Assembly (NCBI GenBank): GCA_019314375.1
Contig: JAFCZJ010000014.1
Coordinates: 12,153-76,152 of the forward strand
Reading direction: 5' to 3'
From: Deltaproteobacteria bacterium
GTDB lineage: Bacteria; Myxococcota; B64-G9
Length of the DNA stretch: 64,000 bases
This document shows positions 10,974-54,560 of the stretch, in pieces. The notes below the pieces were generated by a model. It was not told where the DNA came from and did no database searches. It saw nothing but the letters and a program-made list of their open reading frames with translations. How positions within the stretch are numbered: the first letter of the stretch is position 1; each line of letters starts with the position of its first letter. The translations under genes were made by a program, and so were the position numbers.

Positions 10974-10989
10974 CAAACCCTCTCCTCGG

Positions 10990-14143: not shown

Positions 14144-14722
14144 TTATTGATAAGGACTTGCCGCCGGTGGCCGAAACACGGGGGTCTCAGGCAAAGGCTG
14201 TACCGTGGGATCCAGTTCCGGCACCTTGCTCTCGTCCACCTCCACCTCCACCGTGGTTTTGCCCACCGCGAAAGCAAGTTCACCCACACACTGCTCTGCC
14301 TCGGTTTTTAGTACTTTGATTTTCTGGTGTGAGATGGCCATTTTGTGAAACTCGTGGGCCGCGGTATCTCGCTCCCCTTTGGCCACCGCTTCCTGCAAGG
14401 TGATGTCCGCTTGCTCCGAAATCCGTATCAAGCCCTTAATGTTCGTCAGCTTTTCGTTGACGCAATTGATCTTGATGACGTCTTTTTCAGCTCGCGCCTC
14501 TTTAAGCAGCCCCAATACCGTCGAAAGCACACCCCGCATCTCGCCAAGATAGGTCGAGGCGGTGCTCAATTTCTCGGAATCGGACATCTTGGTGGCGCGA
14601 TCGAAATCCACCTGGATCTTGCTTTTGGAAGCGATGTCTTCTTGCGGCATCTGGGCGATGGCCCCCAGGGAGAACAAGACCACGATCAACGCCACTGCCC
14701 ATTTCATCTTCATTCTCAACAT
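14144..14722 (-). CDS. secreted coiled-coil protein, unknown function
   Basis: Signal peptide MKWAVALIVVLFSLGAIAQ, a helical heptad-rich body and a Pro-rich C-terminus (PLPETPVFRPPAASPYQ). No motif recognised. Confidence 0.5.
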   Translation of the reverse strand: MLRMKMKWAVALIVVLFSLGAIAQMPQEDIASKSKIQVDFDRATKMSDSEKLSTASTYLGEMRGVLSTVLGLLKEARAEKDVIKINCVNEKLTNIKGLIRISEQADITLQEAVAKGERDTAAHEFHKMAISHQKIKVLKTEAEQCVGELAFAVGKTTVEVEVDESKVPELDPTVQPLPETPVFRPPAASPYQ

Positions 14723-18669: not shown

Positions 18670-19146
18670 TCACATCTTGTCGGTCAGTTTCTCATTCGTC
18701 TCACGAAGACGAATGCTCAACACGCGGGCGATGTTGATCACCACCAGGGTAAAACCATTTTTGTAGACTCTTGCGAAAGAATGCAGGTTCTCGTTGGTCA
18801 AGCAGAGCATGTCGACCTTGGTTTTGACCCTGATGGAAGCGGATCGAAACTCCTTGTCGATCAAAGCCATCTCACCAAAAAAATCCTTGGCCTTCAATAC
18901 CGCAATGATGTGCTCTGACCCATCCTCGCGCCTGCGCACGACTTCCACCGAACCGGCCAGCAGGAGGAAAAGGCTGTCGCCCACATCCCCCTGCTCAAAA
19001 ACCATCTCGCCAGGATCAAAGGATCGAAACTGGGTCAGTTCCGCGAGCATCTCGACTTCCTCGGGAAGCAGTCCCGCAAACAAACTGGAGGTTTGGAGAA
19101 CTTCGGTCTTGTTCATCTCGTCACCTCTCACTGTGGAATCCTTCAT
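18670..19146 (-). CDS. stand-alone cyclic-nucleotide-binding (CAP effector-domain) protein
   Basis: FEQGDVGDSLFLLLAGSVEVV ... FFGEMALID...RSASIRV is the cNMP-binding cassette. The product is 158 aa with no HTH or other output domain. Its start overlaps the upstream stop (ATGA). Confidence 0.8.
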   Translation of the reverse strand: MKDSTVRGDEMNKTEVLQTSSLFAGLLPEEVEMLAELTQFRSFDPGEMVFEQGDVGDSLFLLLAGSVEVVRRREDGSEHIIAVLKAKDFFGEMALIDKEFRSASIRVKTKVDMLCLTNENLHSFARVYKNGFTLVVINIARVLSIRLRETNEKLTDKM

Positions 19147-20147
19147 GATCCGGATCCCACGAAAAACTCGTCAATTCGAGGATCGTCTTCGTCCGAGCGA
19201 AGGCTCTCCGGCGGCAAGGGTTCGATGAACTCCACTCCTCGCTGCCGCTTGACCATGTACAAAAATTTGGCCTTGAGATCGATATTGTAGCCTTCCGGGT
19301 GATCGGCCAAGGACATACAGTAGGCCTCTTTGTTGCTTTCCCTTCGCGGCCAGTACAAAAACTCCTCGCCCACCAAGCAGCCACACAAACCCGCTGCCTG
19401 CTGCCGATGTTTCTTAATCTTCCCTTTGAGTTCTTCCGACAAGGATCTGGCCTCGTCTGCTTCGCCGCTTACTGCAGCCGATGCCTGTTTCTGCTCTTCT
19501 GCCTGCTCAAACAGATACTCAGCCCGCCTTCTGGCTCGCCGGCTCTTCGCTCGGCGCTCAGCAACAGACAGATTGGAGGCCATGGATCGAGCCCAGAGCT
19601 GCTCCACTTCTTCCCAAAGCCGCATCTTGCGCTCATTCTCCCGCTCGTAGTTGGACTGAGCTTCCCGAAACGCCCGATCCATATCGCCCAAATCCTTCTG
19701 CCGGCGCTTGATCTGCGGCAAGGGATCCACGGTCTTCTCTTTGTTGTCGCCCTGCTTCTCTTTCTTCCTTAACTCATCGATCACGGACTGCTGGGTCAAC
19801 AGGCGATGCTCTAAGGCACCCATGCGATTGAATATGTCGCTGACGGTGATTCGCTGGTTTTCAAAACTCGCTACGGCTTCATAAGAACGATTCTCGATCT
19901 CGGAGACCTCCGCCAACAATTGAGCCGCCATATCCTCGAGTTCACCGGCCCTGTAGAGTGTGTCTATGGCCTGCTTCTGGGTCTGCTCTGAGCGATATTT
20001 CATCAAGCTCACTTGGGCCAGCATTTCTTCAAGCCTCTCCAATGCCTGCACCAACCGAGCCTCGTAATCAGCCAACTCGACAAACCAAGCATTGAAATCA
20101 TCCTGTTCGAGGAAGGCCTGAACTTCTCGCAGCCATAGGGCCTTCAT
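19143..20147 (-). CDS. cytoplasmic coiled-coil protein, unknown function
   Basis: Long heptad-rich Glu/Arg/Gln sequence with no signal peptide. The start is set at the ATG at 20147 (MKALWLREVQ), which has GAGGAG 7 nt upstream. The track start at 20186 lacks an SD. Confidence 0.5.
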   Translation of the reverse strand: MKALWLREVQAFLEQDDFNAWFVELADYEARLVQALERLEEMLAQVSLMKYRSEQTQKQAIDTLYRAGELEDMAAQLLAEVSEIENRSYEAVASFENQRITVSDIFNRMGALEHRLLTQQSVIDELRKKEKQGDNKEKTVDPLPQIKRRQKDLGDMDRAFREAQSNYERENERKMRLWEEVEQLWARSMASNLSVAERRAKSRRARRRAEYLFEQAEEQKQASAAVSGEADEARSLSEELKGKIKKHRQQAAGLCGCLVGEEFLYWPRRESNKEAYCMSLADHPEGYNIDLKAKFLYMVKRQRGVEFIEPLPPESLRSDEDDPRIDEFFVGSGS

Positions 20148-20219
20148 GCCAATCTCCTCTTCAAAAACCGGGAACCAAATCCCCATCCCGGTCAGCTAAC
20201 AAGTCATGTTGAGTTTGGA

Positions 20220-21593
20220 TCATCCCCCAGGGGCCAGGATGAAGGGATAGACAACCGCCGTCTCTCCCCCGTCGGCGGGAGGGAATCGGATGGCGCGAAC
20301 CCGTGCTTTGATGCAAGAGGCCAATTCGGGATCGCCGGTGGTGTTCTCCACAATCTCCACCTCGATGATCTTGCCTCCGGGGTGGATCACAAAACGAATG
20401 ACGACCTTGCCTTTGAGCTCTGGGTTGCGCTTGAGACGCTTTTCATAACAATGCTTGATGCCACCCAGCCTTCGGCGTATCACTTTTTTAATGTCCGACT
20501 GGGATCGGGAATCGGAATCAAACTCCTCCAAGGCCGCTGAACTCACCTTGGCGACGATTCGTGCTTCGGCCTTTTTGGGGCCTCCGCGTCCAGCCCCACC
20601 AACCACACCCTTGGTGCCCAGATCCTTGATGTTGGCCGCGGAGGCCGCACCATCAACACCACGGGAACCCTTTTGCCCCGCAGCCGTGGCCACATCCAAA
20701 CCACCACCGATACCATCGAATGCGCCGGCACCATCGCCACCGACAGTTCCCTCGGCAAAAACATCGGCTACCGCGCCGCCCATGGCCATGCCGGAGTCCC
20801 CCTTGGCCCCCAGCAACTTAAGCAATCCCCGGCCGGTCACTTTCTTTTCCATGGCCACGGTTCGTGCCTTGGCGACTGCCGCCGAATCCCCTTCATCGCC
20901 CCCATCATCGCCCGTGTCCTCTACTTCTTCCTTCTTATTCTTCTTGGGTTCGGGTGCCTTCTCTGCTTCGCCGGCCCCATCTCCGTCTTCGTCTTCGCTC
21001 TTTTCCTTGTCCGGCATAATCATCTTGGCGAAACGATCAGGGATGTCCTCAAGGGACACCTCTCTTTCCACGATGGGAATCTGTTTCGCCCAAATTATCA
21101 TCACCAACATCGCGATGGACACAAAGCTGAAGACGGATGTGTAGGGCCAGTCGATATTCCGGGACCAATAGCCCTTGACCTCTGCCGGCAATTGGGGCTT
21201 GACCGGCTCGGGAGGAGGGCTCACGAATTGGAACAGGATGATGCACTCGCCCATGGAAACACGCCCGCGAGATCCCTCGTTCAATTTCAAGTGGTAGGTG
21301 TCACCTGATTTTCGCACCAAATTCTGGGCCTTCAGTGATTGTAGATCAGCCGCCTGGTCCGCCACCGAGACCCGACCCGACATCTTGTCCGTGAAGGCCA
21401 AATGGTAATCCGTGCCACGCATTTCAAAAAGGCTAAAGGTCTTGGGCACATCGGCTGCCGGCAGCACAATGGTGTTGCGCACGCCGGAGCCCACCGTCAC
21501 GCTGCCGCGCTTCCGGACGAGTTTCTCCTCGATGATCTTGCCACCCTGAATGACGCCGATTCTGAGAATCTTAGGTCTCGAGGCTTCCGTCAT
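20220..21593 (-). CDS. bitopic protein with a TonB-C-like (AgmX/GltG-type) C-terminal domain
   Basis: N-terminal ~125-aa cytoplasmic beta-rich domain (FHA-like by eye: VTVGSGVRNTIVLPAADV...YHLAFTDKMSGRVSV). One TM segment (TSVFSFVSIAMLVMIIWA). An acidic then Gly/Ala-rich linker. The C-terminal block IKKVIRRRLGGIKHCYEKRLKRNPELKGKVVIRFVIHPGGKIIEVEIVENTTGDPELASCIKARVRAIRFPP resembles TonB_C / AgmX-type domains. Confidence 0.6.
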   Translation of the reverse strand: MTEASRPKILRIGVIQGGKIIEEKLVRKRGSVTVGSGVRNTIVLPAADVPKTFSLFEMRGTDYHLAFTDKMSGRVSVADQAADLQSLKAQNLVRKSGDTYHLKLNEGSRGRVSMGECIILFQFVSPPPEPVKPQLPAEVKGYWSRNIDWPYTSVFSFVSIAMLVMIIWAKQIPIVEREVSLEDIPDRFAKMIMPDKEKSEDEDGDGAGEAEKAPEPKKNKKEEVEDTGDDGGDEGDSAAVAKARTVAMEKKVTGRGLLKLLGAKGDSGMAMGGAVADVFAEGTVGGDGAGAFDGIGGGLDVATAAGQKGSRGVDGAASAANIKDLGTKGVVGGAGRGGPKKAEARIVAKVSSAALEEFDSDSRSQSDIKKVIRRRLGGIKHCYEKRLKRNPELKGKVVIRFVIHPGGKIIEVEIVENTTGDPELASCIKARVRAIRFPPADGGETAVVYPFILAPGG

Positions 21594-21644
21594 TTTGAGC
21601 GTCCTTCGTTAGGGCCTGACATGCGTCAGACCTTGGCCAACAAC

Positions 21645-22181
21645 TCAACCGGTCTCTTTTTTCAATACGGCAAACTTATACGAGGCATATTCGGCCTGCC
21701 CCGCCGAATACAAAACCTCGGTCAACAATCGAAAGGGAATGCGTTTGTCCGCGATGAGAGTCAGCAGGCCCTTGAACTGCAATTCCTTCTTGTTCTTGTT
21801 GTACTTCGCGATGAGTTTCTTCTTTTCGCGCTGATTGACCAGGGCATCCCTCAAGGGCACGATCAGCAAGGAAGCAGGATTGTTGCCCTTCTTATAAGAG
21901 GCCTCCACCCGGCCATTCTTTACGCGCGCAACCACTTTGTTTTCCACCAGAATCACCTTGCTGGTGATGGCGACCTGAATGGCGGCCTCCTTGGGGATGA
22001 TTCGAGTTTCCGAGCGAGGCAAAGACGTATCCCGGGTGGGTTGGATCACAATCGGATCGACTGAAAAATTCTTAAGCAAGTACAGAATCAAAGCCGTAAA
22101 AAGACCCATGATGGGAATCATGTCCAGCTCAGGGACAGCATCTTCACCCCTGCCGGAAGCTCTGCGACGAGAAAGTCTCAT
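21645..22181 (-). CDS. ExbD/TolR-family motor stator subunit (paralogue 2; AglQ/AglS-like)
   Basis: PELDMIPIMGLFTALILYLL is the ExbD/TolR N-terminal TM region, followed by a periplasmic domain. Its start overlaps the upstream paralogue's stop (ATGA, 22178..22181). Confidence 0.75.
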   Translation of the reverse strand: MRLSRRRASGRGEDAVPELDMIPIMGLFTALILYLLKNFSVDPIVIQPTRDTSLPRSETRIIPKEAAIQVAITSKVILVENKVVARVKNGRVEASYKKGNNPASLLIVPLRDALVNQREKKKLIAKYNKNKKELQFKGLLTLIADKRIPFRLLTEVLYSAGQAEYASYKFAVLKKETG

Positions 22182-22771
22182 GAGATCTCCGGACTAAGAA
22201 TCACATCGAAGAACAAGGACTTCGTTCCACTCTGACGCGTGGCATCCATCACATTGACCAGAATCTCATATGGAACATCGGGCTGGGCATAGATGATGAT
22301 CTTGCTCTCCTTGGGAAACTCCTGCTTGATCCGCAACATTTCTTTGGTCAAGCGCTTGTAATCGTAACAATGGGCTGGCGGTGGGATATTCTTGGCCATA
22401 GCGTCTCGACAGGTCGGATCGCGAAGAAGCAAGGGAAGGGTGGGCTTCTTGGCCTCTTCTTCTCCCTCGCTCGTCACGTTGCCCATCACTCCGCCCACAC
22501 CCGCGATGAACAAGCCTTCGTAGGTGATACCCACCGTAAGATTCAGCTTCTTTTCAGGCTCTTTGTCGTCATCTTGCTGGGCCCCGCCTGCATCCAGGGG
22601 ATCGGCATAGCGCGGCGCGTTGACATTGATTACGCCGATTTGGGCCAAACCCGTGGTGCTCACCATGATGAAAAGCATGATGGAGGTGACGATATCCAGG
22701 TAGGGCGTGATATTAAGCCCAATGGGTTCCTGGTACGATTTGGACCTTTGCGATGGCTTCCGGCCTCTCAT
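22178..22771 (-). CDS. ExbD/TolR-family motor stator subunit (paralogue 1; AglQ/AglS-like)
   Basis: LNITPYLDIVTSIMLFIMV carries the conserved TM aspartate context of ExbD/TolR. It has an acidic insertion (QQDDDKEPEKK). Confidence 0.75.
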   Translation of the reverse strand: MRGRKPSQRSKSYQEPIGLNITPYLDIVTSIMLFIMVSTTGLAQIGVINVNAPRYADPLDAGGAQQDDDKEPEKKLNLTVGITYEGLFIAGVGGVMGNVTSEGEEEAKKPTLPLLLRDPTCRDAMAKNIPPPAHCYDYKRLTKEMLRIKQEFPKESKIIIYAQPDVPYEILVNVMDATRQSGTKSLFFDVILSPEIS

Positions 22772-22849
22772 GTACCCAATCTCCTACTCACAGGTCAAGC
22801 ACTGGACCCATTTGGGACAACCCAAACAGGCCTTGGTTCCCGCTGGCCA

Positions 22850-23611
22850 CTATGCCTCGCGACCGCCAGGGCCGGAACCACCCTTACCCCTGGAAATCAA
22901 AAGATTTTCCAGCTTAACGGACCACTGATCCAGCTCATCGATGATCTTCTTGGTGATGTTTTGCAGAATCAACTGGAAGACCATCAAGAAAATGGCGATC
23001 GACAAACCAAAACCTGTGGTGTAAAGCGCTTCCGAAACACCCTTGGCCAAGAGCTGGGCCTTAAGCTCAGGACTGACACCGGAGGTTGCGGTAAAAGCCG
23101 CAACCAAACCCGTGATGGTTCCCAACAGACCCAAGAGGGTCGCGATGTTGGCAAGCTGTGCCAGGTTGCTCGTGCGTTTCTGCAAAATGGGCACGATCTC
23201 CAAGGTCGCTTCTTCCACTGCGTTGCGGATTTCAACCTCTCCCCGGTTGGCCCGGGTGAGCCCCGCCTTGATCACACGCGGCAAGGCCGCGGCCGGTGCC
23301 GCATTGCAAAGCTTGATGGCCCGTTCAATGTTGTTGGCCATGACAAGCTTCTGAACCTGAGCCATAAAGGCCTCTGCGTTCACATTGTAACGGAAGAAAA
23401 TGAAGAACATGCGCTCAATGATGATGGCCATACCCCAAGCCAAGGTGATGCAATTGATGTAGAGAAAGGCACCACCCGCATCGAAGAACTCCGCTACCCA
23501 GGTCATGAACCCGCCTTCTTCGCCTCCGCTCTCAGCCGCCAGGGCCGTTATGGGAAGGATGAGCATCAAGCCCAGAATGGTCCCCACGGAGACCTTTTTC
23601 CTTGTTGTCAT
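22850..23611 (-). CDS. MotA/TolQ/ExbB-family proton channel (AglR-like)
   Basis: LAQLANIATLLGLLGTITGLVAAF and SEALYTTGFGLSIAIFLMVF are the MotA_ExbB signature helices. Confidence 0.85.
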   Translation of the reverse strand: MTTRKKVSVGTILGLMLILPITALAAESGGEEGGFMTWVAEFFDAGGAFLYINCITLAWGMAIIIERMFFIFFRYNVNAEAFMAQVQKLVMANNIERAIKLCNAAPAAALPRVIKAGLTRANRGEVEIRNAVEEATLEIVPILQKRTSNLAQLANIATLLGLLGTITGLVAAFTATSGVSPELKAQLLAKGVSEALYTTGFGLSIAIFLMVFQLILQNITKKIIDELDQWSVKLENLLISRGKGGSGPGGREA

Positions 23612-23644
23612 CGTCGTTCCTCCGGTGTCGCACCAGCCCCTATC

Positions 23645-23899
23645 CTAAAAGGGACCCGTTCGAGTGGCTTCTTCAATTTTGGGCACCAATTTCTCTTTCA
23701 ATCGCAAACCTTCAAAATTCAAATTCGATCGGGGCAGAAGATACCACACCTCTGGCTTCTGGATTTTTCCCTCCACCCGTGTAACTTCCTGAATGACCAC
23801 TTGACGGATAGCCCGCTTCTTCTTGGCGACCACGACTGGTGCTATCAATAGCAACAGCCCGATCCAAAAACAAATCCATCGCCAAGTTCCGACTTTCAT
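23645..23899 (-). CDS. 84-aa single-TM protein (positionally GltF-like)
   Basis: TM segment WRWICFWIGLLLLIAPVVVA followed by KKKR. There is no motif. The call rests only on size and position between the TPR genes and the motor. Confidence 0.4.
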   Translation of the reverse strand: MKVGTWRWICFWIGLLLLIAPVVVAKKKRAIRQVVIQEVTRVEGKIQKPEVWYLLPRSNLNFEGLRLKEKLVPKIEEATRTGPF

Positions 23900-23954
23900 G
23901 ATCCTAACCCTTATAAAAGAAAGCCATGCTCCGGGTCAAGCAACGCCCTGAGCT

Positions 23955-25604
23955 TTACTTCTCATCGCCACCCAACTTGCCGGAAGGGGGGTCTTCTTCC
24001 TCCCCGTCCTTGCCTCCACCCAGCTTGCCGGAAGGAGCCTTTTCCTCTCCGTCCTTGGCCCCACCCAGCTTAATACCTGGCGGCGGGGCGGCACGCTTAG
24101 CGGCTTCTTCCGCCTTACGCTTGGCGGCTTCTTCCTGTTCCGCCTTACGCTTGGCGGCTTCTTCCTGTTCCTGCTTACGCTTGGCGGCTTCTTCCTGTTC
24201 CTGCTTGCGCTTGGCCGCTTCTTCCTGCTTGAGCTTGGCTGCTTCTTCCTTCTTGAGCTTGGCGGCTTCTTCCACTTTGCGCTTGGCATCCTCTTCCGCC
24301 TTGCGCTTTTTTTCCACCTCGCGTTTTTTCTTACGCGCCTCCGACTTAATGGCTCGGTCTTTTTTCTTCTTTGCCATCTCGATGTATTCGGCAAGCTTGG
24401 GGTGTCGCCCCCCAGCGGAACTATACCTGGTAAAATTCTTTTCCGCCAAAGCAAAACGCTTGGACTTCTCATAACCCGGCACGTCATCGTCCAAATACAT
24501 CAAACCCATATTGTACAAAACTTCCCGGTGATCAGGTTGCAAGGCCAAGACCTTCTTGTAGGCGACCTCGGCATCCGCAAATTGCAGGTCTCCTCGCAGA
24601 GCGTTGGCAAGATTCAAATACGCACCGACAAAGCGCGGCGCCACGGCCACCGCCTTCCTGAAATGTTCTGCCGCCGAAGCAAAGTCATTGGCTCGGTTAT
24701 ACAAAACACCCAGGTTGTTGTGGGCCTCCACAAAATTGTCGTCGAGCTCCACCGCCTTTTTAAATGCTGCAATGGCCGCGGGGGTGTTTTCCATGGCCAG
24801 ATACACGAAACCCAATCGATTCTGAATGATCGGATTGGACTTGTCGATCTCACGAGCTTTTTGCAGGATGCGTTCCGCCAATTCTACCTTGCCGCGAGCG
24901 GAGTAAACCTGAGCCAAGTGGATCATGGCCCCCACGTTCCGCTCATCCATCTGCAAAACGCCCTTGGCCTGCTTTCCGGCGTCATTCAGTTTCTTTTGCG
25001 CGATCAGAACCGAAACCAATTGATTGCGCAGGCCCAAGGCCCGCGGCTCAGCCTTGACAGCAGCCGTCACCACGCGCTGGGCCTCCCGCAGACGACCTGC
25101 CCGAAGCATGAGATTACTCAAATTGACGATCGACTCAAGATGGGCCGGCTTCAGGGCAATCGCCTTCCGGTAAGCGGCCTCGGCATCACCAAATCGCGTC
25201 TGTCGCTCCAGCAAAACCGCTTTGTTGTAATGGCACTGTACGCAACGGGGGTGCTTGTCTGCCGCTTGCTCGGCCAGCTTCAAGGCCCCCAGGGGATCGC
25301 CTTCGGCTCTTTGCACGGCAGAGGCAAGCAAGGCCGAAGCCTCTTGACCCAACTCAAACTCATCCGGACCGGTGTCCGCGGGAGCCGCCTTCTCTGCTTT
25401 CTCGCCCCCCTCCCCCTTGTCCTCATCTGCCTTTCGATCCGCTTCACTCAAAGGAGCCACGGCCTCGTCATCGACCGCATCCTTTTCGCTCTCGACCTCC
25501 TTGACCTCATCCGGCTTGGGATCGGGGGTGGTCGCGCAAGATGCAAACAAACCAAGCAGGGCCCCAAAAAGCACCAAGCACAAGCTGCGGAAGAAGGTCC
25601 TCAC
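23955..25604 (-). CDS. TPR-repeat lipoprotein with a Lys/Glu/Ala-rich C-terminal tail (GltE-like position)
   Basis: Lipobox LGLFASC. There are at least 8 TPR-like units (for example AEAAYRKAIALKPAH, AIAAFKKAVELDDNFVEAHNNLGVLY, AEVAYKKVLALQPDH). The C-terminal tail contains EEAAKRKQEQ repeats. Confidence 0.75.
   Translation of the reverse strand: MRTFFRSLCLVLFGALLGLFASCATTPDPKPDEVKEVESEKDAVDDEAVAPLSEADRKADEDKGEGGEKAEKAAPADTGPDEFELGQEASALLASAVQRAEGDPLGALKLAEQAADKHPRCVQCHYNKAVLLERQTRFGDAEAAYRKAIALKPAHLESIVNLSNLMLRAGRLREAQRVVTAAVKAEPRALGLRNQLVSVLIAQKKLNDAGKQAKGVLQMDERNVGAMIHLAQVYSARGKVELAERILQKAREIDKSNPIIQNRLGFVYLAMENTPAAIAAFKKAVELDDNFVEAHNNLGVLYNRANDFASAAEHFRKAVAVAPRFVGAYLNLANALRGDLQFADAEVAYKKVLALQPDHREVLYNMGLMYLDDDVPGYEKSKRFALAEKNFTRYSSAGGRHPKLAEYIEMAKKKKDRAIKSEARKKKREVEKKRKAEEDAKRKVEEAAKLKKEEAAKLKQEEAAKRKQEQEEAAKRKQEQEEAAKRKAEQEEAAKRKAEEAAKRAAPPPGIKLGGAKDGEEKAPSGKLGGGKDGEEEDPPSGKLGGDEK
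24111..24230 (-). repeat. four tandem 30-nt in-frame repeats (10-aa EQEEAAKRKQ units)
   Basis: 24111..24140 and 24141..24170 are identical (cgccttacgcttggcggcttcttcctgttc). 24171..24200 differs at 2 nt. 24201..24230 is more diverged. Degenerate copies flank the array. Confidence 0.9.
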
Positions 25605-25613
25605 CCGAATCCT

Positions 25614-28600
25614 CTACTTTCCTTCCGGCTTGACGCCGGTCTGCACCACGGCCTGCAGCAAAGGCAGAGCCCCGTGGCAATCCAGCACCAAGGCCGCCTC
25701 GGGTTGTTTCTGCAGGGGGTATTTGATGGGCTCGAATCGGTTCAGGCTTTCCCGCGTTCTCCGGGTCCAGTCGTTGGCCACCTTGAAGGACTTGCTCTTC
25801 TCCATGGTTTCCGCGTAAGCACTCACTGCTTTCTTGATGGGGGCTTCGGCAAACTCTTCCAGCTTGCCTTTGTACATATCACATTCTTCCTGGTTCAAAC
25901 CCTTGGGACAGGGTGAGTTGATCAACACATCGGCGAAATTCTCATAGAGGTATCCAAGACGATAGTAAGCCGCCAAAGTCCAATCGACACGCTTGTATGC
26001 AAACACCTTCCGATAAAGGGCTTCCATCTTCTTGAGCTCCACCGCCTTCTTGTTCAAAACCTTCTTGAGCTTTCGCGGAGAAACCTCAAAGGTAATCTTT
26101 TCGTAAACCTTGAGCCGGTGATCGGCCAATTCGAAACGAGCCTTGGCCGCGGCCTCTGCCGCTCGACCACCACCAGGCAGCTGGTAGCGATCAAAGAGTT
26201 TCAGAACCGTACCGTAGCCCTTGCGCGCGTCCCTCTCTCGGCCCATGGCCACCCGGGCCTCAGCCATTTTCATGTGGGCTTGAACCAGTCGCTCTTGTTC
26301 GGCTGCATCCCGCCCATAGGTCCGAATGAAACGACCGAACAAAGCGATGACGCTCTTGTGGCTCTTGGCCTTGCCCAGCACCACCCCCGCATGAAAATAG
26401 TTCTCGGCCGAGTCCGGCCGATCCTTGAACAGCTTGGCATAACGCTCGAAGGCCTCAGCAGCACGCCTGTATTGCTGATCACCTTCCAACGCCACGGCGG
26501 CGTTGTACAGGGCATCACCACGAAACTTTGAGTCTTTGTACTTGTCCACCAGGGCCAGATAGTTGTCGATGGCCTTCTGGAAATCGTAAGCCGCTTCCGC
26601 ACTGCCGGCCATCAGAAAAAGGGATTTGTCGGCAAACTCGCTGCTCGAGTACTCACGAACGATTCGCTCATAGAGGCGACCCGCAGAGACCGGTCGATTG
26701 GACAAAGTATAACAATAGGCTGCATTGTTGAGCGCTTTGTCCGAATTGCCCCCCTTGGGGTCGTCGTCCACAAGTCTGACGAACTCAGCCGCCGCCTCAT
26801 CCAGCGAACGATTGGCCTCATCCTGCTTGCCGGCCTTGGATGCCTCCTGACCAGCCGCCATGAGATTGGAAGCCCTTTTGAATCGAGCCCCCAGCTCGAA
26901 GGCCTTCAGGCTCTTCTTGAGCTGCGGGTCTCGGGTCAGGCCTGCCAGCTTGCGGCTCCATAGTTCAACCTGGGCCCAATCCTTGGTGATCAAATAGCTC
27001 TCGATGATCAAGTTGATAGAACTCGAGGACAACTCATCTTTCTGGGTTTCAGCGACGATGGAGGCAAAACGCTCTCGGGCTTTTTCAAAATGGTCGTGGG
27101 CATAAAGCGTCCGCGCTGCCCGAAAAGCCATGGTATCTCGCTCGGGGCTTTGGGGGAGACGATCAACGTAGGCATCAAGAGCATCAATCATTCTCTTGCG
27201 CAGAGGCGGCAGCTCCCTGGGCTCCACTTTGGCGTCTGCCGGGCGGTCCTTACTGGTCATGAGCTTAATGGGAGGAAGTGCACCCGCCTCCTCTGCCTGC
27301 TTGATCAGGTTGGCTACGGCCATCACCACCGAGTTGGCCGAATCCGATAAAAATTCTGTGCCTGCCTTGTTGTCGCGAACGGTGGCGTAAGCCACAGCCG
27401 CCTTTTCGAACTGCAAAGAGTAGTAGTAGGACTCTGCCAAATAATAGGTAAGGCGATAAACATCACGGGAGCGAGGAAAACGCTTCAGGTAGTCTTCATA
27501 AGCCTTAGCCGCCTGGGCATACTCTCGTCGGGCTTCTTCGGGACGCTCCTGCTGCTTGTGGCGCTGTGCCATGGTGTGGTGAAAAACCGCTGAAGCATGC
27601 AAGGCGTTTTCCGTCAAGCGCCTTGCCTCGCTTAGCACTTCGTTGTTCTCTCCATTGGCTTTCCACCAATCGGACCCTTCCCCAAAGCGATCCACCAATT
27701 CTTCCTGGGCTGCCGTGGCTTCATCCATCTGCCGTATGCGTTGGTGGCTGTCGATGATGGTCATCATCAGCTTCGGGTTGTCCGGATGGGTCGGCTCTCG
27801 CCTGATGGCTTCCCTCAACGCCACCACCGCTCGATCATAGTGGGTGTCGAGATGAAAAACCTCGCCCAACTTGCGGAAAAACTCACCCGCATACTTTCGA
27901 CCACCCTTCCCGGCGATGAATTGCTTGGCGTTCTCCGTGCCTGACCGCGGCCACTCATCTTCTGCAAAACTAATGGCCAGGTACTGCATGGCCTCTTTGC
28001 GCAGCTCACTCCGGGCCATGTCCTCCTCGCCCTGTTCTCCTGTATCCGCCCAAGCAATCAAGCGGTCGAACTGCTCCACGGCTTCATCGAATCGGTCGAT
28101 TTTGTAGTAAGTCCACGCCAACTTATACATGGCCTTGTCAAACATGGGGCTATCAGGGAAGTCCAAGACCCGCTTGTAGGCCTCGATGGCTTGCTCCAGT
28201 TTATCCGGGTTGTCGAAGTACAGCTCGCCAAGTCGAGTATAGACCTCCGGCAAAAGCCTGCTCGACGGGAAGCGCTCCACAAATTGGCTCCACACCTGCT
28301 CGGACTCGTCTTCTTCTCCTTGCTCTGCCAGACAATAGGCCAACAAATAATGCGCTCCATCGGCCAGTCCGTAACCCGGAAATCCCGATATCAAACGTTG
28401 CAAAAGACTGACCGCACGCTCGAAATGGGCCACCGGAGGCAGGGGGTCACTCTTTCGCTCGCCCCGGTTGAAAGCATCAAGGGCTTTCTCGTACTTCTCT
28501 TCGGCCTCGGCCAATTCCAGCTTGCTCTTCTCGTAGTGCAGTTCGGCCAAACGCCAAAGTGCATCAGGGGTGTATCTGGAATCATTGGGATAGCGGGACA

Positions 28601-28973
28601 GGAAGCGCTCGAAAATTTCGATGGCCTCTTTGCGCCTGCGATTTTCTTCGATTTCAATCTCAGAGATAGCCCGCTCAAACGAATCCACCACCGCCTGGCG
28701 CTTCTCGTCATACTTCCGCTCGACGATGAGCTGTATCTCTTTCTTATAGGCCTTGGTCTGCTCTTGAAAGTCATTGACGATACGAAGCATCTCTTCCAAT
28801 TCGCGCTGTTCGTCCAGACTCGGGCCCCCCGGCAAGTCAATTCCCGCATCCTCTTTCGCCTTGGGGGCCGACGCCGCACCATCGCCCTGAGCATAAACCC
28901 GGGCGGGCATCCCTATCGCCAAAACGAGGCAAAAGACCCCGATCGGCAGACTATTCCACCTGCTGAAGCACAC
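25614..28973 (-). CDS. 1119-aa secreted TPR-repeat protein (GltD/AgmU-like position and size class)
   Basis: Signal peptide LPIGVFCLVLAIGMPARVYA. TPR-like pairs occur throughout (for example PDALWRLAELHYEKSKLELAEAE, AMYKLAWTYYKIDRFDEAVEQF, DALYNAAVALEGDQQYRRAAEAF). The start is set at the GTG at 28973, which has AAGGAG 7 nt upstream. Confidence 0.7.
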   Translation of the reverse strand: MCFSRWNSLPIGVFCLVLAIGMPARVYAQGDGAASAPKAKEDAGIDLPGGPSLDEQRELEEMLRIVNDFQEQTKAYKKEIQLIVERKYDEKRQAVVDSFERAISEIEIEENRRRKEAIEIFERFLSRYPNDSRYTPDALWRLAELHYEKSKLELAEAEEKYEKALDAFNRGERKSDPLPPVAHFERAVSLLQRLISGFPGYGLADGAHYLLAYCLAEQGEEDESEQVWSQFVERFPSSRLLPEVYTRLGELYFDNPDKLEQAIEAYKRVLDFPDSPMFDKAMYKLAWTYYKIDRFDEAVEQFDRLIAWADTGEQGEEDMARSELRKEAMQYLAISFAEDEWPRSGTENAKQFIAGKGGRKYAGEFFRKLGEVFHLDTHYDRAVVALREAIRREPTHPDNPKLMMTIIDSHQRIRQMDEATAAQEELVDRFGEGSDWWKANGENNEVLSEARRLTENALHASAVFHHTMAQRHKQQERPEEARREYAQAAKAYEDYLKRFPRSRDVYRLTYYLAESYYYSLQFEKAAVAYATVRDNKAGTEFLSDSANSVVMAVANLIKQAEEAGALPPIKLMTSKDRPADAKVEPRELPPLRKRMIDALDAYVDRLPQSPERDTMAFRAARTLYAHDHFEKARERFASIVAETQKDELSSSSINLIIESYLITKDWAQVELWSRKLAGLTRDPQLKKSLKAFELGARFKRASNLMAAGQEASKAGKQDEANRSLDEAAAEFVRLVDDDPKGGNSDKALNNAAYCYTLSNRPVSAGRLYERIVREYSSSEFADKSLFLMAGSAEAAYDFQKAIDNYLALVDKYKDSKFRGDALYNAAVALEGDQQYRRAAEAFERYAKLFKDRPDSAENYFHAGVVLGKAKSHKSVIALFGRFIRTYGRDAAEQERLVQAHMKMAEARVAMGRERDARKGYGTVLKLFDRYQLPGGGRAAEAAAKARFELADHRLKVYEKITFEVSPRKLKKVLNKKAVELKKMEALYRKVFAYKRVDWTLAAYYRLGYLYENFADVLINSPCPKGLNQEECDMYKGKLEEFAEAPIKKAVSAYAETMEKSKSFKVANDWTRRTRESLNRFEPIKYPLQKQPEAALVLDCHGALPLLQAVVQTGVKPEGK

Positions 28974-31293
28974 TCTTAAACTCCTTGTGCAAACGTTTGC
29001 GCTCAGCACCTAGCTTGCGTCCCAGCTCAGATATTTTGTCGGTGGCCGATTGCTTTCGCCCCCATGCCACATCCAAGATACCCACTTCGGCTTCCAGCAC
29101 CAGCTTGTGGAAACGATCCCGCACTTTCTTCAAGGTAGCGAAAGCCACCTCTCCCGCCAAATTCTCCGTTTCCTTGTCAAGCTGATCCAAAGACTGCGAA
29201 TAGGCATCGATATTGTTTCGCTCGGCTTGAGCCTTGGCTCGCAATTTTGCCGACTCCGCCTCGACTCGCTTGTCCAGGTTTTCTCGTACCTGCTTCAACT
29301 TGCGGCGCAATCGCTCAGATCTCAATCGCAACTGGTTGATGGAGGCCACCCGGGCCGTCCCCTCAGAGCCCAGCCTGTCGTGGATCTGATCAGACAAAAG
29401 GCGCTCTTTGGCCACGGCTTCGGCATAAAGCTGGCGCAATCGCTCCTCTTGGTTTTGCGAATCGGCATCCATGCCGGCCCGAGCCTTCTCCGTGCTGAGC
29501 TGGCCCTGCAAAGAATCCAGATCCTTCTGAAGCTGTTCAGCCATATGCCAACCGCGGCGGAGCTCTTCACGGAAGGCCTTGACCGCTGCTTGACGCCCTT
29601 TCAACTCGGCATCGTGTTGCCGTAGCCACTCCTCCATGGCCCCAAGCTGAGCCTTCATGCCCTTGAGGGCAATACCCGACTGATACACGGCCTGCACCAA
29701 ATCTTCAATGCGCCTACGGATGCGCTGCTCCCGCCCCTCCATGGCCTGACGCGTGGTGGGCAGACCATCAAGCTTGCCCTCCAATTTTTCTCGCTCTTTT
29801 CGCACCGCCTCCATGGCCTGACGTTCCGAGGCCGACACATATTCCATGACCACCCGTTCCTCCAGGCGCACCATGTTGCGCTCAAGAATCACGCGTGCGT
29901 TCTGCACCTCGATGGTCCGCTTGGCACCCTCTCGATAGAGGGGGAAAAGGTTGATCCGGTCAGCCTCTTTGACCAACAAGGCATCCAGTTGATCCAGCAG
30001 CGCCCTGGCTTCCTTCACAAACTGACGCCCGGTTTCTATGTCCTTGGTCACGCCCAGGGCCACCGCCATCTGATCACCCTGGCTCATCCACTTGACCGCC
30101 AAAGGCGGCAAATAGCTAGACAAGTCAAAAGACTCCAAGTTGCGTCCTGCCACTTCATTGAAATAGCGCACAGGATCATCGTGTTCCTTCATCAAGCGAT
30201 CCAGCTCTTCTTTGACCGAGGCGTAGGAGCCGGCCACCTTGGCGAACATCTCCGCAGCCTTGTCAAATTCGATCATCTTCTCCAGCACATGACCCTGCAT
30301 CAAGTGCGCCCGCGGGACCAAGGTAGAGTCCGGCGTGGATACCTCCAGAATTTCCAAGGTTCGAAAAGCCTCCAACAACCACTTCTTGCGATCCTCGGGC
30401 TGCTCCGTCTTCTCCGCCAGTTGTACATAGGTCCAACAGATTTCCAACAAGGCGTCGTCAAAATGGAGAGAGCTGTGCTCAATGGCCTGGAAAGCGTCTA
30501 AGGCCTCAACCTCCTGGCCCATGTCGTGCAACAAACGCCCACGGGCCAGGTGCCCCAACTCCACCACTTCTCGCTCTGCTTCCCACTTGGGTTTCAAGCG
30601 CACCAGCTTATCGAAAACAGCCAGCGCCTTGTCGTATTCGTTCTTTCGGACATGCACGACACCTAAGAAATATCGAGACTGAAAAAAATACGGCTGACCG
30701 GCTTGCAGGGTCGAAAACGCGCTGGCGGCGTCGTCAAAACGCCCCCTGAGAATCAGGGTCTTTGCCCAGAGATACTGGCCTTCGGGGGACGGCCCGCCGG
30801 TGCTCCGACCGAGCCGATCATGATAACGGTCCACCTCCGCAAAATCCCGAGTATTCAAAGCGATCTGCATCAGACGAACCATGGCCAAACGACGAAAGGG
30901 ACCACCTCGTTCGTGGTCCAGCACCAGGCGAAAATACGTACGCGCGTCGATGTAGTTTTTGCCGAAGAACAGTGCTTCGCCCAAACTGAAAGCCGCGTCT
31001 ACGTATCTGGAATTGCGCTTGTGCTTGCCCCCATCCACCAACTCATGAAAAACGATGGCGGCACGCACGTAGTCCTTCAGCAGCATCAGAGACTGACCAT
31101 CGTTGAGTCTCAGATCAAACACGTCCCGCTGCCCACCCCCATTGACCGCGGTGATGTATTCGACATCGATGAGGTTCGCTTTGCGTTCGAGCAAATCCAT
31201 CTGCTTAATCGACCGCCGCAGATCGTCATCGATGTCGGCCGAAGCCGGGACCGCACCACAAAGGCCCAGACAAAGGCACAACACGCGCACCAT
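28951..31293 (-). CDS. secreted TPR (N-terminal half) plus long coiled-coil (C-terminal half) protein
   Basis: Signal peptide MVRVLCLCLGLCGAVPASA if the ATG at 31293 is used. The track's TTG start at 31380 would add 29 non-signal residues. TPR-like units occupy the first ~400 aa, followed by ~380 aa of heptad-rich sequence. Confidence 0.6.
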   Translation of the reverse strand: MVRVLCLCLGLCGAVPASADIDDDLRRSIKQMDLLERKANLIDVEYITAVNGGGQRDVFDLRLNDGQSLMLLKDYVRAAIVFHELVDGGKHKRNSRYVDAAFSLGEALFFGKNYIDARTYFRLVLDHERGGPFRRLAMVRLMQIALNTRDFAEVDRYHDRLGRSTGGPSPEGQYLWAKTLILRGRFDDAASAFSTLQAGQPYFFQSRYFLGVVHVRKNEYDKALAVFDKLVRLKPKWEAEREVVELGHLARGRLLHDMGQEVEALDAFQAIEHSSLHFDDALLEICWTYVQLAEKTEQPEDRKKWLLEAFRTLEILEVSTPDSTLVPRAHLMQGHVLEKMIEFDKAAEMFAKVAGSYASVKEELDRLMKEHDDPVRYFNEVAGRNLESFDLSSYLPPLAVKWMSQGDQMAVALGVTKDIETGRQFVKEARALLDQLDALLVKEADRINLFPLYREGAKRTIEVQNARVILERNMVRLEERVVMEYVSASERQAMEAVRKEREKLEGKLDGLPTTRQAMEGREQRIRRRIEDLVQAVYQSGIALKGMKAQLGAMEEWLRQHDAELKGRQAAVKAFREELRRGWHMAEQLQKDLDSLQGQLSTEKARAGMDADSQNQEERLRQLYAEAVAKERLLSDQIHDRLGSEGTARVASINQLRLRSERLRRKLKQVRENLDKRVEAESAKLRAKAQAERNNIDAYSQSLDQLDKETENLAGEVAFATLKKVRDRFHKLVLEAEVGILDVAWGRKQSATDKISELGRKLGAERKRLHKEFKSVLQQVE

Positions 31294-31376
31294 GCCCCGC
31301 GCATCAAGCGGCGTCCGCCATAAGCAATGGTTTCCCGGCCCAGGCAGGCAGGGTCCGTGGCTGGCAGGGGCCAGAA

Positions 31377-32144
31377 TCAATTCGCCTCCTCACCCTTGAC
31401 TTGCAGCGCTTTGGCTCTTTCCGATGTCAGTTTTTCGATCTTGATGTCATAACGAATGGCCGGTCGCTCTTCGAGCTTGGCGGTGATACCGCCCCGCTCG
31501 AAGGCAACGGTCTTCAAAGTCAGGATCTTGCCTTCCTCCGCGGTGAAGGTGTAACTCGACGTCACTTTGAACTTGTAACCCTTTACGTAAGAGAAAAACC
31601 CAAAACCCTGCCCCTGAAAAACCATCTTAACTGCGATGTTGTGATTGCCGGGCACGATGTTGCCTGAAAAAATTTCTTTCTCCTCAATGTCGTCTAAATC
31701 CCCGTCCACATCCACTTTTTTGAAAATGGGTTGCGTATCCAAGGCATATTGCACGTTGATAAGCTTGAACGCGCCGCCCATTTCATTGCGGTGCACAATG
31801 ATGGCGCGGGCCCCGGCTCCGATGGAGCCCGTCAACATGGTCTCTTGCAGCTGCAGAATGCGCGCCTTGGTTCTGAAAATCTTTTCTTTCAATTCATTGA
31901 CCCGCTCCTCCAGGCCGCGGAGCTTGAGGTCATAGGCATCATCGGCCGTATTGGCCAAAGATGACGGAGCAGGAGCTTGTGTTTTTCCCCCAGCGGGATC
32001 GGACACGACTGCCGGCTTATCCGGGTTTGTGCTCTCCGGACTGGCCACGTCGCCGCCCGGGGCAGGCGGGTCATCAGCCTGCCCGGCCCAGCTTGGGCTG
32101 ACACACAACATCCACAGCGCCAAAATCCACGCGATCTGTTTCAT
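31377..32144 (-). CDS. secreted protein: Pro-rich linker, short coiled coil, beta-rich C-terminal domain; unknown function
   Basis: The ATG at 32144 (MKQIAWILALWMLCVSPSWA) has GGAGGAAAC directly upstream. No motif recognised. Confidence 0.5.
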   Translation of the reverse strand: MKQIAWILALWMLCVSPSWAGQADDPPAPGGDVASPESTNPDKPAVVSDPAGGKTQAPAPSSLANTADDAYDLKLRGLEERVNELKEKIFRTKARILQLQETMLTGSIGAGARAIIVHRNEMGGAFKLINVQYALDTQPIFKKVDVDGDLDDIEEKEIFSGNIVPGNHNIAVKMVFQGQGFGFFSYVKGYKFKVTSSYTFTAEEGKILTLKTVAFERGGITAKLEERPAIRYDIKIEKLTSERAKALQVKGEEAN

Positions 32145-32249
32145 GTTTCCTCCGCAACAGGAACCCGACCATCGCCAGCTTCCCCCCGGGGACAACTTGT
32201 CCGGGTAAGCTCTTGCCGAAGCAACTCCGCTCACAATCTCGGCTCCTGT

Positions 32250-32278
32250 TGTTAACCCGAAACCCCCCGAAATGTCAA
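32250..32278 (-). promoter_or_regulatory. possible internal promoter in the 260-nt mglA-downstream gap (TTGACA with a weak -10)
   Basis: Minus-strand TTGACA at 32278..32273. The -10 candidates 17-18 nt downstream (GTTAAC / TTAACA) are poor. Confidence 0.2.
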
Positions 32279-32404
32279 TGTGAAGACCTCACAAAATCCA
32301 GCCATGTACCCCCCATTCTTCCCAACAGGCATCTTCCGAATCCCTGAAGATCCCCATTTTCTTGTACAGGTATTCCGCGCCGGCTCAGACTCACCGGCGG
32401 TGGC

Positions 32405-32992
32405 TTATCGACCCTTCTTCAGTTCTTGCAAGACGAGCTTCGCGATGGCCTTCAGGGAGTCGAAAACGCCCCAGCCGGTGGCTGCGATAGACTGGAACTC
32501 AGGCACTTTGCCCGGGTTCAGCAGCCTGGACAACTCCTCGATCGAAGCCGCGTTGGGCAAATCGCGTTTGTTGTACTGCATCACCCAAGGCACCTGGTTC
32601 AAATCGTAACCTTGCTCGGCCAAGTTGACCTTGAGGTTCTCCAGGCTCTCCAGGTTGGCTTCCATCCGCTCGATCTGGCTGTCCGCCACAAAAACCACGC
32701 CATCGACGCCCTTGAGAATCAGCTTCCGGCTGGCATCGTAAAACACCTGACCGGGCACCGTATACAGATGGAAGCGGGTCTTGAATCCTCGAATCTCGCC
32801 CAAACTCAAAGGCAAGAAGTCGAAAAACAGTGTCCGCTCCGTCTCGGTAGCCAAAGAAATCATCTTGCCCTTGGCGTCCGGGTTGGTCTTGGCGTAAATA
32901 TACTGCAAGTTGGTCGTCTTCCCGCAAAGACCGGGTCCATAGTAGACGATCTTACAGTTGATTTCTCTGGACGAATAATTAATGAAGGACAT
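32405..32992 (-). CDS. mglA: Ras-like polarity/motility GTPase MglA
   Basis: [86 protein letters not shown] and QYNKRDLP are essentially the M. xanthus MglA sequence as I remember it. Confidence 0.95.
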
Positions 32993-33008
32993 GATCCTCG
33001 CCCTCGAC

Positions 33009-33491
33009 CTAGTCGCTAAACAAGTTGTCTATGTCTTCGTCCGTAATCTCCGCAAAGGGAGACCCGGCAGCCGGATCTTCAATCTTGCGCATCAAACTTT
33101 CGAAGATCTGAGTCAACTCGACCGTGGTCTTCTTGACCCTTAATCGAACAAGCCCCAACGAAGAACGGTTGTCGAAAATCACCACCAAAATCACACGACC
33201 CGCGATGATGGAGATATGCAGGTTATCCCGCTCTCCCTCGTGAAATAGAATTGAAAACTCTTTCTCCCCGATAAGCTTGGCCAAGCCACCGGTCGCCGCG
33301 ATGTTACCCGCGGTCAAAGACGCCAGCGAAGTGGTGTCGATATTATCGGTCTCACCCGCCGAAGCGATGAGCTGCCCATTCTTGTCCACCAGAAAAACCA
33401 CCTTCGAGCTGGCTTCCCGGTACAGGCGTTCACAGATCGTACTGATCTGATCGAACTCCTGATCGTACATCACCATGTGAGGACTGACCAT
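33009..33491 (-). CDS. mglB: Roadblock/LC7-fold MglA GAP, MglB
   Basis: [16 protein letters not shown]...[27 protein letters not shown] and [22 protein letters not shown], plus the acidic tail [18 protein letters not shown], match MglB. The mglB-mglA order has a 16-nt spacer. Confidence 0.9.
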
Positions 33492-33729: not shown

Positions 33730-33776
33730 GTCATCGCAATTATGATACCTGTTTGACGCTAACCGGAGGCAATCCC

Positions 33777-34331: not shown

Positions 34332-34350
34332 GCGACCAGGAGGTGGAAGA

Positions 34351-35822: not shown

Positions 35823-35824
35823 CC

Positions 35825-46616: not shown

Positions 46617-46649
46617 GGCGTGGAACTGAATGGTTCCACGCCTTTTTTT
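46617..46649 (+). terminator. Rho-independent terminator
   Basis: 10-bp stem ggcgtggaac / gttccacgcc, a 6-nt loop, and 7 T (46643..46649). Confidence 0.75.
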
Positions 46650-46676
46650 AACTCTTTGTCTTTAAGGAGATCCTCC

Positions 46677-48137: not shown

Positions 48138-48176
48138 AAATCCCAGACGGCTCAGGCCGCCTGCATATTTTTTATG

Positions 48177-48208
48177 CCCGTCCCCGCGCAAGGGGGCGGG
48201 TTTTTTTT
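48177..48208 (+). terminator. Rho-independent terminator
   Basis: 9-bp stem cccgtcccc / gggggcggg (one G-U pair), a 6-nt loop, and 8 T (48201..48208). Confidence 0.7.
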
Positions 48209-54555: not shown

Positions 54556-54560
54556 TCGAA

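Follow-up and report, generated by a model that had tools for sequence, protein, structure and literature searches.

A Glt-like gene cluster with its own motor between mglBA and wzpB/wzaB-like genes in an uncultured member of the Myxococcota, orthologous by sequence and gene order to the Myxococcus xanthus G4 cluster

Introduction

Only two proton-driven surface transporters have, to our knowledge, been characterised, namely the Agl-Glt gliding machinery and its relative Agl-Nfs. In the latter, Nfs moves spore-coat polysaccharide with the Agl motor (PMC3858216). Myxococcus xanthus also harbors a Glt-type gene cluster, G4, known since 2011, and a spare motor, M2, known since 2013, both still without a function. 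Here we analyze a stretch of 64,000 nucleotides (nt) from an uncultured member of the Myxococcota (assembly GCA_019314375.1, contig JAFCZJ010000014.1, positions 12,153 to 76,152; hereafter the window, whose own numbering is used throughout), in which a Glt-like cluster with a TolQ-TolR-TolR motor is found on the minus strand between mglBA and genes similar to wzpB and wzaB.

In Table S3 of Luciano 2011 (PMC3169522), MXAN_1923 is listed in the G4 rows, and that study names MXAN_1922 as the member of G4 homologous to gltD. Gliding and twitching remained as in the wild type, and swarming normal, when MXAN_1922 carried a polar insertion, and the function of G4 is unknown. The same applies to the so-called core complexes of Geobacter, Gammaproteobacteria and Fibrobacter, whose gene order is identical to that described below (PMC3169522). 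The mglA and mglB genes of M. xanthus are MXAN_1925 and MXAN_1926, while the biosurfactant-polysaccharide (BPS) pathway has WzpB (MXAN_1916) and WzaB (MXAN_1915) at its outer-membrane end (PMC9603273). BPS export is needed for swarm spreading, and wzaB, which lies 1 Mbp away from the remaining BPS genes, has been described as "orphan-like". In the literature, we found the MXAN_1919-1924 locus tags in Luciano 2011 only, and neither the linkage of the cluster to mglBA nor that to wzpB/wzaB was found discussed. A survey of MglA neighborhoods describes Group 1 contexts as variable, and in the consulted papers on BPS and outer-membrane polysaccharide export (OPX), neither mglA nor TolQ nor a cluster of Glt paralogues is mentioned in the vicinity of wzaB/wzpB.

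Results

Orthology to the G4 cluster

Judged by sequence and gene order, the cluster in the window and G4 of M. xanthus (MXAN_1919-1923) are orthologues. An alignment of its GltD-like protein of 1119 amino acids (aa), here called GltD' (primes mark Glt-like proteins of the window and of related loci), was used as query in a scan of one genome per species, and the window proteins were compared with the best 80 loci by tblastn. All of these 80 loci were clusters of G4 type. For Myxococcus, Archangium, Pyxidicoccus, Citreicoccus and Anaeromyxobacter-type genomes, the best match was always the same locus, in which the genes lie on a single strand in the order mglB-mglA-p285'-GltC'-GltD'-GltE'-small-GltG'-cNMP-p192'-porin-OPX. 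Each Myxococcaceae genome gave one locus among the best 80, and this locus follows mglBA wherever upstream sequence was covered; the closest Myxococcaceae relatives of GltD' are thus encoded at G4 and not by gltD, nfsD or MXAN_1327. Leaving out its motor, the window block is collinear with MXAN_1926 to MXAN_1915 over twelve genes on the same strand, the MXAN locus tags being taken from the literature and the identities of MXAN_1924, 1918 and 1917 inferred by counting. In a Myxococcus-type locus (L072; L-numbers denote the compared loci), the lengths of the open reading frames (ORFs), 811, 1112, 445, 421 and 204 aa, agree with those published for MXAN_1923, 1922, 1919, 1916 and 1915, respectively. 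It is because of the same locus order, the matching ORF sizes and the identity of mglBA with MXAN_1925/1926 that we regard the window as carrying the G4 orthologue. A preliminary description of positions 20220-33491 had held that mglBA and the glt-type clusters are separate in M. xanthus; this is incorrect for G4, which directly follows MXAN_1925/1926.

The members of the block, in descending coordinates, are:

33009..33491, minus strand: mglB, 160 aa, Roadblock/LC7 GTPase-activating protein of MglA (Pfam Robl_LC7)
32405..32992, minus strand: mglA, 195 aa, Ras-like polarity GTPase
32145..32404, minus strand: intergenic gap of 260 nt between mglA and the next gene
31377..32144, minus strand: p285 (or p255), secreted protein with signal peptide, disordered linker, long helix and beta-sandwich; positional counterpart of MXAN_1924
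28951..31293, minus strand: GltC', GltC-like protein with tetratricopeptide repeats (TPR; Pfam matches) and coiled coil, about 780 aa; counterpart of MXAN_1923 (809 aa)
25614..28973, minus strand: GltD', GltD-like TPR protein, 1119 aa; counterpart of MXAN_1922
23955..25604, minus strand: GltE', GltE-like TPR lipoprotein with a K/E-rich repeat tail, 549 aa; counterpart of MXAN_1921
23645..23899, minus strand: GltF', protein of 84 aa with a single transmembrane (TM) helix in its translation, in the GltF position; counterpart of MXAN_1920 (91 aa)
22850..23611, minus strand: TolQ/ExbB/AglR-type proton channel, 253 aa (Pfam MotA_ExbB PF01618, 78 bits)
22178..22771, minus strand: TolR1, TolR/ExbD-type stator subunit 1, 197 aa (Pfam ExbD PF02472, 47 bits), TM Asp present
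21645..22181, minus strand: TolR2, TolR/ExbD-type stator subunit 2, 178 aa (Pfam ExbD PF02472, 27 bits), Gly at the Asp position
20220..21593, minus strand: GltG', GltG-like bitopic protein, 457 aa, with a cytoplasmic FHA-like region, a TM helix, a linker and an AgmX/PglI domain of the TonB-C-like kind; counterpart of MXAN_1919 (447 aa)
19143..20186, minus strand: cytoplasmic coiled-coil protein, 347 aa, a variable member
18670..19146, minus strand: cNMP-binding protein, 158 aa (Pfam cNMP_binding, 86 bits); positional counterpart of MXAN_1918
14792..18601, minus strand: secreted FG-GAP beta-propeller protein, 1269 aa (Pfam FG-GAP_3 and FG-GAP), about ten repeated domains, a variable member
14144..14722, minus strand: p192, secreted helical protein, 192 aa; positional counterpart of MXAN_1917
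12789..14033, minus strand: WzpB-like outer-membrane beta-barrel porin, 414 aa (Pfam BBP2_2)
12086..12679, minus strand: WzaB-like class-3 OPX lipoprotein, 197 aa (Pfam Poly_export and SLBB)
9930..12294, minus strand: DegT/DnrJ-type aminotransferase and SIS-domain protein (Pfam), end of the co-directional block

The ORF listing placed every gene of the preliminary description on the minus strand with the order, sizes and spacings stated there. The co-directional block extends past 20220 down to about 9930, with spacings from a 4-nt overlap to gaps of about 110 nt. A 4-nt overlap is also found between the TolR1 and TolR2 genes. Some starts can be read in two ways: p285 has 255 aa if read from the ATG at 32144, in front of its signal peptide, and 285 aa from a GTG at 32234, GltC' has about 780 aa counted from an ATG and 809 aa if it starts at a TTG, and GltD' has 1119 aa in the database call (P0001) and 1131 aa as an ORF. 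The start of the DegT/DnrJ-type gene is uncertain, as its ORF overlaps wzaB, and its membership of the block is weak, since a DegT match was found in only one related locus. Tandem repeats with periods of 24, 30 and 45 nt occupy 23968-24329 (24094-24308 in one scan) in the part encoding the C-terminal tail of GltE', a Lys/Glu/Ala-rich stretch that gives weak TolA model matches.

Compared with G4 of M. xanthus together with MXAN_1924, mglBA and wzpB-wzaB, the window thus has the same genes in the same order and strand and of similar sizes, with identities from 28% to 83%. GltC' is 26-32% identical to the syntenic gene of Myxococcus and Archangium loci, and GltD' 35-40% identical, over more than 90% of its length, to the gene following mglBA in Myxococcaceae. 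GltF' shares 35-65% identity with the syntenic small gene of related loci, the cNMP-binding protein, syntenic in most loci, 40-75%, and the WzpB-like porin 25-32% with the syntenic gene of Myxococcus loci (421 aa, like MXAN_1916). The differences are that in the window the small gene and GltG' are separated by TolQ-TolR-TolR, a motor missing from the M. xanthus locus, and that the window adds the 347-aa coiled-coil and the 1269-aa FG-GAP proteins. As the same order recurs in the best 80 genome loci and in two further contigs, the arrangement is not due to chance.

The record containing locus L072 (BNCN01000011.1) is titled "Comamonas sp. KCTC 72670", while its mglBA-G4-wzpB-wzaB block is of Myxococcus type and its MglA is 83% identical to that of the window; the record is probably mislabelled or contaminated.

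The mglBA genes and the gap downstream of mglA

Both polarity proteins resemble their characterised counterparts over the full length. MglA scored 363 bits against M. xanthus MglA (PDB 6hjh; about 85% identity) and MglB 236 bits against M. xanthus MglB (PDB 6h5b; about 70% identity), and mglB is situated directly upstream of mglA with 16 nt between them. The 260-nt gap after mglA and its TTGACA box, at 32278-32273, were both found as previously described. The box was said to be accompanied by a weak -10 only, and neither a reading of the sequence nor a consensus scan gave a convincing -10 box there. A promoter scan of the gap yielded nothing above the expectation from shuffled sequence. In a terminator scan of the gap no convincing site appeared, the sole terminator-like feature being a 5-bp stem at 32178-32165. 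The gap sequence is not conserved and does not align among the closest loci.

Family assignment of the core proteins

GltG' matched the NCBIfam GltG model with 163 bits (E 8e-48) over 443 residues, corresponding to model positions 206-648, and missed the cutoff of 650; the model of the AgmX/PglI C-terminal domain (NF033768) was passed with 99.9 bits against a cutoff of 40. The GltJ model matched the shared C-terminal domain only. Since the match begins at model position 206, GltG' keeps the membrane-proximal FHA-like region, the TM helix, the linker and the TonB-C-like domain. It is without the N-terminal FHA domain, which in the domain map of GltG is the part that binds GltI (PMC11761067). 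GltE' matched the NCBIfam GltE model with 66 bits (E 2e-18), missing the cutoff of 225, and the likeness of GltC' and GltD' to GltC and GltD is indirect, through their orthology to MXAN_1923 and MXAN_1922. No family model matched the 84-aa GltF' protein or p192, and the 347-aa coiled-coil protein had no Pfam match and only weak SMC-like ones.

The order GltC'-GltD'-GltE'-small-TolQ-TolR-TolR-GltG', in one co-directional cluster, is that of the Geobacter core complex rows in Table S3 of Luciano 2011 (PMC3169522). Taken together, the matches to the GltG and GltE models, the missed Tol and Exb equivalogs and the Geobacter-type order show that the Agl/Glt-core-like reading of the preliminary description was right at the family level. 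The cluster type was, however, already described in 2011 (PMC3169522) and is not a new kind of machine. The idea of an unusual minimal gliding motor tied to mglBA is not supported, and the cluster is a member of a catalogued, uncharacterised paralogue group. Relative to the core complexes, the window cluster belongs to the myxobacterial G4 lineage and has the p285 gene, with mglBA on one side and OPX/porin genes on the other, neither association having been reported for core complexes. With the Agl-Glt gliding machinery (G1, G2 and M1) it has in common homologous GltC-, GltD-, GltE- and GltG-type parts, an AglRQS-type motor and probably the force path from the motor via GltG, GltD and GltC to the outer membrane. 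It differs in that GltG' and GltE' fall below the equivalog cutoffs.

The stator superfamily, the TonB-C-like domain and the transduction of proton-motive force to the outer membrane are shared with Tol-Pal and ExbBD-TonB as well, and a divergent system of that kind, serving envelope integrity or energised outer-membrane uptake, could account for the MotA_ExbB, ExbD and TonB_C-like domains and for TPR proteins that match the YbgF/CpoB TPR model. The scores make this very improbable. The TolQ-like protein reached 43 bits against the TolQ equivalog TIGR02796 (cutoff 221) and 25 against ExbB (206), and the TolR-like one 29 bits against the TolR equivalog TIGR02801 (cutoff 127) and 25 against ExbD (216); this profile search, which the preliminary description had called for, thus missed all equivalog cutoffs widely. 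The TonB_C region of GltG' was likewise under both of its cutoffs (PF03544, 20.4 vs 24.6; TIGR01352, 25.6 vs 27.1). The motor proteins are only remotely similar to solved TolQ, ExbB and ExbD structures, the TolQ-like protein with only 29 bits to those of E. coli TolQ. The block has no gene for TolA, TolB, Pal or a TonB-dependent receptor, the YbgF score adds up eight TPR stretches of an 1100-aa protein, and it is the Glt-specific models that match instead. Membership of Tol-Pal or ExbBD-TonB was accordingly rejected on the equivalog scores and the remote structure matches.

The in-cluster motor

A motor was found inside the cluster in 10 of the 62 assessable loci, as well as in two further contigs reached through the nearest relatives of the window TolQ, which themselves lie in the same cluster type. 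A search for TolQ homologues returned only uncultured sequences among the top 120. On a GltD' tree, motor-bearing loci are distributed over several deep branches, which makes it probable that the in-cluster motor is ancestral and that it was lost from the cluster in the Myxococcaceae, Archangiaceae and Anaeromyxobacter-type lineages; the tree, a rough neighbor-joining one with a few long-branch artefacts, was used for the distribution of this character state only.

The two stator subunits are not equivalent. In an alignment, D26 of TolR1 stands in the column of ExbD D25, where TolR2 has G. Exactly one TolR per cluster carries the TM Asp in the window and in L001, L002, L004, L013, L052, L063, L066, L073, L075, L077, L081 and L082. 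The clade of the window has the Asp in the first TolR and G or A in the second, whereas all other clusters examined have it in the second, with N or G in the first.

Given that M. xanthus keeps its spare motor M2 (MXAN_3003-5) elsewhere than at G4, a natural inference is that M2 is a candidate for the displaced G4 motor. The M2 TolQ-like subunit does not bind GltG or NfsG (PMC3858216). The lengths of the TolQ-type proteins (253 aa in the window, 260 aa for MXAN_3003 and 245 aa for AglR) are not decisive.

Polysaccharide-export genes downstream of the cluster

It had been stated that no outer-membrane module could be recognized. A different one, consisting of a WzpB-like porin and a WzaB-like OPX protein, is in fact situated just beyond the part of the window described at that time. 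The WzaB-like protein matched the WzaB-type structure PDB 9n9a with 194 bits (E 2e-56). Being a 197-aa lipoprotein with Poly_export and SLBB domains, without a Wza_C helix and beside a BBP2_2 porin, it has the features of a class-3 OPX protein, and the porin would be its Wzp partner of the 18-strand type. The pair corresponds in order and position to MXAN_1916/MXAN_1915, i.e. to two components of the WzcB-WzaB-WzpB translocon for BPS (PMC9603273, PMC12819527). In M. xanthus WzaB, the contact motifs are Phe203-Phe204 (binding WzpB) and Arg106-Arg107 (binding WzcB). Neither was found in the window protein, which has IW at its C-terminus in place of Phe-Phe, the aromatic character thus being kept, and RN, within the sequence LRNPQ, in place of Arg-Arg. 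Of the window ORFs examined, none was identified as a Wzc, Wzx or Wzy gene. The p192 gene directly precedes the porin gene wherever a porin was seen in the covered flank.

Conservation of the linkages

Neither neighbor is invariably attached. The mglBA pair precedes the cluster in 40 out of 58 loci with enough upstream sequence and is absent from the remaining 18, so that the linkage to the polarity GTPase is not obligatory. Of the 38 loci with enough downstream sequence, 27 have the p192-WzpB-WzaB module after the cluster, and four of the 11 exceptions are not informative, since a large FG-GAP gene fills the covered flank. The Wzp/Wza module is kept in loci without mglBA (L075-L077 and L079).

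These distributions bear on the gliding function steered by MglA that the preliminary description had considered, i.e. a minimal machine to which a surface adhesin, e.g. the FG-GAP protein, gives traction. The block adjoins, and is co-directional with, a bona fide mglBA pair, it has Glt-type components and a large secreted FG-GAP protein, and gliding in Bdellovibrio involves expanded core clusters, in which agl genes are included (PMC3169522). Yet the M. xanthus orthologue is dispensable for gliding, as motility stays wild type after the polar insertion in MXAN_1922, and Pfam and NCBIfam searches found no equivalents of GltA, GltB, GltH, GltK, GltI, GltJ or CglB in the block. GltG' is without the GltI-binding domain, and there is no zinc finger of the GltJ type, which is the known MglA-GTP receptor. 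With mglBA missing from 18 of 58 loci and Luciano 2011 arguing that the core alone does not drive motility (PMC3169522), we find a gliding function improbable.

A stronger contender, although still an unlikely one in our view, is a Glt-like trans-envelope motor with another cargo or role, such as protein or lipid transport or envelope maintenance, for which the position between mglBA and wzpB/wzaB would be an inherited order without coupling. Both linkages have been lost in some lineages, the intergenic gap after mglA is not conserved, and it follows from the genetics of M. xanthus that expression of wzpB/wzaB does not depend on MXAN_1922; Wartel 2013 also suggest that such machines may carry diverse cargo (PMC3858216). 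On the other hand, p192-WzpB-WzaB stays attached, even in the absence of mglBA, in lineages so far apart that identity between the Glt-like proteins is only 26-40%, and its retention over such divergence is hard to ascribe to inertia alone.

Other members of related loci

The secreted protein p285 has at least 722 homologues and no Pfam or NCBIfam match. It was present in every assessable related locus, and in its C-terminal domain it shares 55-60% identity with the copies of the Myxococcaceae, which makes this domain far more conserved than the Glt-like proteins. An AF2 model (pLDDT 65) shows a helix and a beta-sandwich with generic transthyretin-like or Ig-like matches only (query TM-scores of at most 0.3), and the fold search gave no functional lead. 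Homologues in records of metagenome-assembled genomes (MAGs) at NCBI are labelled "dihydrolipoamide acetyltransferase", probably a misannotation caused by the Ala/Pro-rich linker.

Syntenic homologues of the 347-aa coiled-coil protein were found in many loci and in L082. The FG-GAP protein is syntenic in the clade of the window, in Anaeromyxobacter-type loci and in L013, L052, L058 and L082. In the window (14792-18601) its N-terminal FG-GAP beta-propeller is accompanied by some ten diverged repeats, each of about 95 aa and with a DPDGD motif, and it may be a surface or adhesin component.

In the Myxococcales MAG GCA_002716585.1 (L081, 14391-19498), a G4-type cluster that includes the motor precedes genes for a p192-like protein, a porin and an OPX protein, and directly after these comes a gene for a 751-aa Wzc-type co-polymerase with a kinase domain. 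No mglBA is situated upstream of this cluster.

Other genes in the window

Divergent from mglB, plus-strand genes are found at 33753-36754 and 37241-39130. The ORFs at 33753-36754 are, from their translations read by eye, what we take to be 2-oxoacid:ferredoxin oxidoreductase subunits, and that at 37241-39130 encodes a NuoF-like flavoprotein (Pfam). These genes suggest an anaerobic or microaerobic lifestyle of the uncultured Myxococcota host (GC about 57%). Two adjacent genes for outer-membrane transporters of the FadL/TodX family occupy 46620-49675, and two adjacent paralogous genes for proteins of about 1090 aa with Ig-like domains of the HYDIN/ASH/DUF1573 type occupy 51310-57833.

Discussion

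We propose, by analogy with the characterised machines, that the region is a G4 orthologue in ancestral core-complex form, retaining its own motor, and that it specifies a proton-driven, Glt/Nfs-like trans-envelope transducer tied to the export of a BPS-type polysaccharide; we would put the probability of this at roughly 55%. Following Agl-Glt and Agl-Nfs, a TolQ pentamer with the TolR1/TolR2 pair would turn proton flow into movement. The stator would engage the TM helix and the flanking FHA-like region of GltG' and pass the movement on to the periplasmic linker and TonB-C-like domain, which would grip a pillar formed by the TPR protein GltD'. This pillar would in turn be linked to the outer membrane by GltE', GltF' and GltC'. 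An interaction between AglR and GltG has been seen in a two-hybrid assay (PMC3169522), and contacts among GltG, GltD, GltC and GltF appear in an AlphaFold model (PMC11761067). Since GltA, B, H and K are absent and the porin/OPX pair is conserved next door, the likeliest outer-membrane partner or cargo would be the WzpB/WzaB translocon or a BPS-like polymer, comparable to spore-coat polysaccharide in the case of Nfs. MglA/MglB may set where the machine acts. The best functional analogy is Agl-Nfs, a Glt paralogue acting on a Wzx/Wzy-pathway polysaccharide that is exported via a class-3 OPX/porin pair (PMC3858216). It differs in borrowing the AglRQS motor, in having the outer-membrane proteins NfsA, B and H, and in that the nfs and exo genes are not adjacent.

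Several points weigh against this proposal. No function is known for G4, and the polar insertion in MXAN_1922 leaves gliding and twitching unaffected (PMC3169522). As this mutant also swarms normally and BPS export is needed for swarm spreading, G4 is not essential for BPS export in the laboratory. WzaB, WzpB and WzcB, moreover, form a trans-envelope complex on their own, so that G4 could at most modulate BPS export. The M2 motor is dispensable for both motility and sporulation (PMC3858216). The homology of GltC', GltD' and GltF' to Glt proteins is one of orthology to the MXAN genes listed in Luciano 2011, as opposed to a direct profile comparison. Seven assessable loci of a single clade (L008-L011, L039, L064 and L078) are without mglBA, motor and Wzp/Wza, so that none of the linkages is obligatory, and shared ancestry within the Myxococcota could explain part of the synteny.

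A more far-reaching version, to which we attach less than even odds and which we put forward tentatively, is that a G4-type cluster and an M2-type motor, which would be kept in the cluster here and displaced in M. xanthus, together make up a third working machine of the Agl/Glt class, with WzpB/WzaB or a BPS-like polymer as its partner or cargo and under the polarity control of MglA/MglB.

The useful new point is a comparative one, i.e. the recurrence across the Myxococcota of the block mglBA-G4(+motor)-wzpB/wzaB. Together with its relatives, the window indicates that the ancestral G4 cluster probably had its own motor, and that the cluster stayed beside a class-3 OPX/porin pair over deep divergence and often beside mglBA as well. 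Should this linkage be without functional meaning, the region would be another copy of a catalogued paralogue. If the proposed third machine is real, it would use proton flow to position polysaccharide secretion, or to distribute it, along the cell, and it would provide a function for three orphans of M. xanthus, namely G4, M2 and the "orphan-like" position of wzaB.

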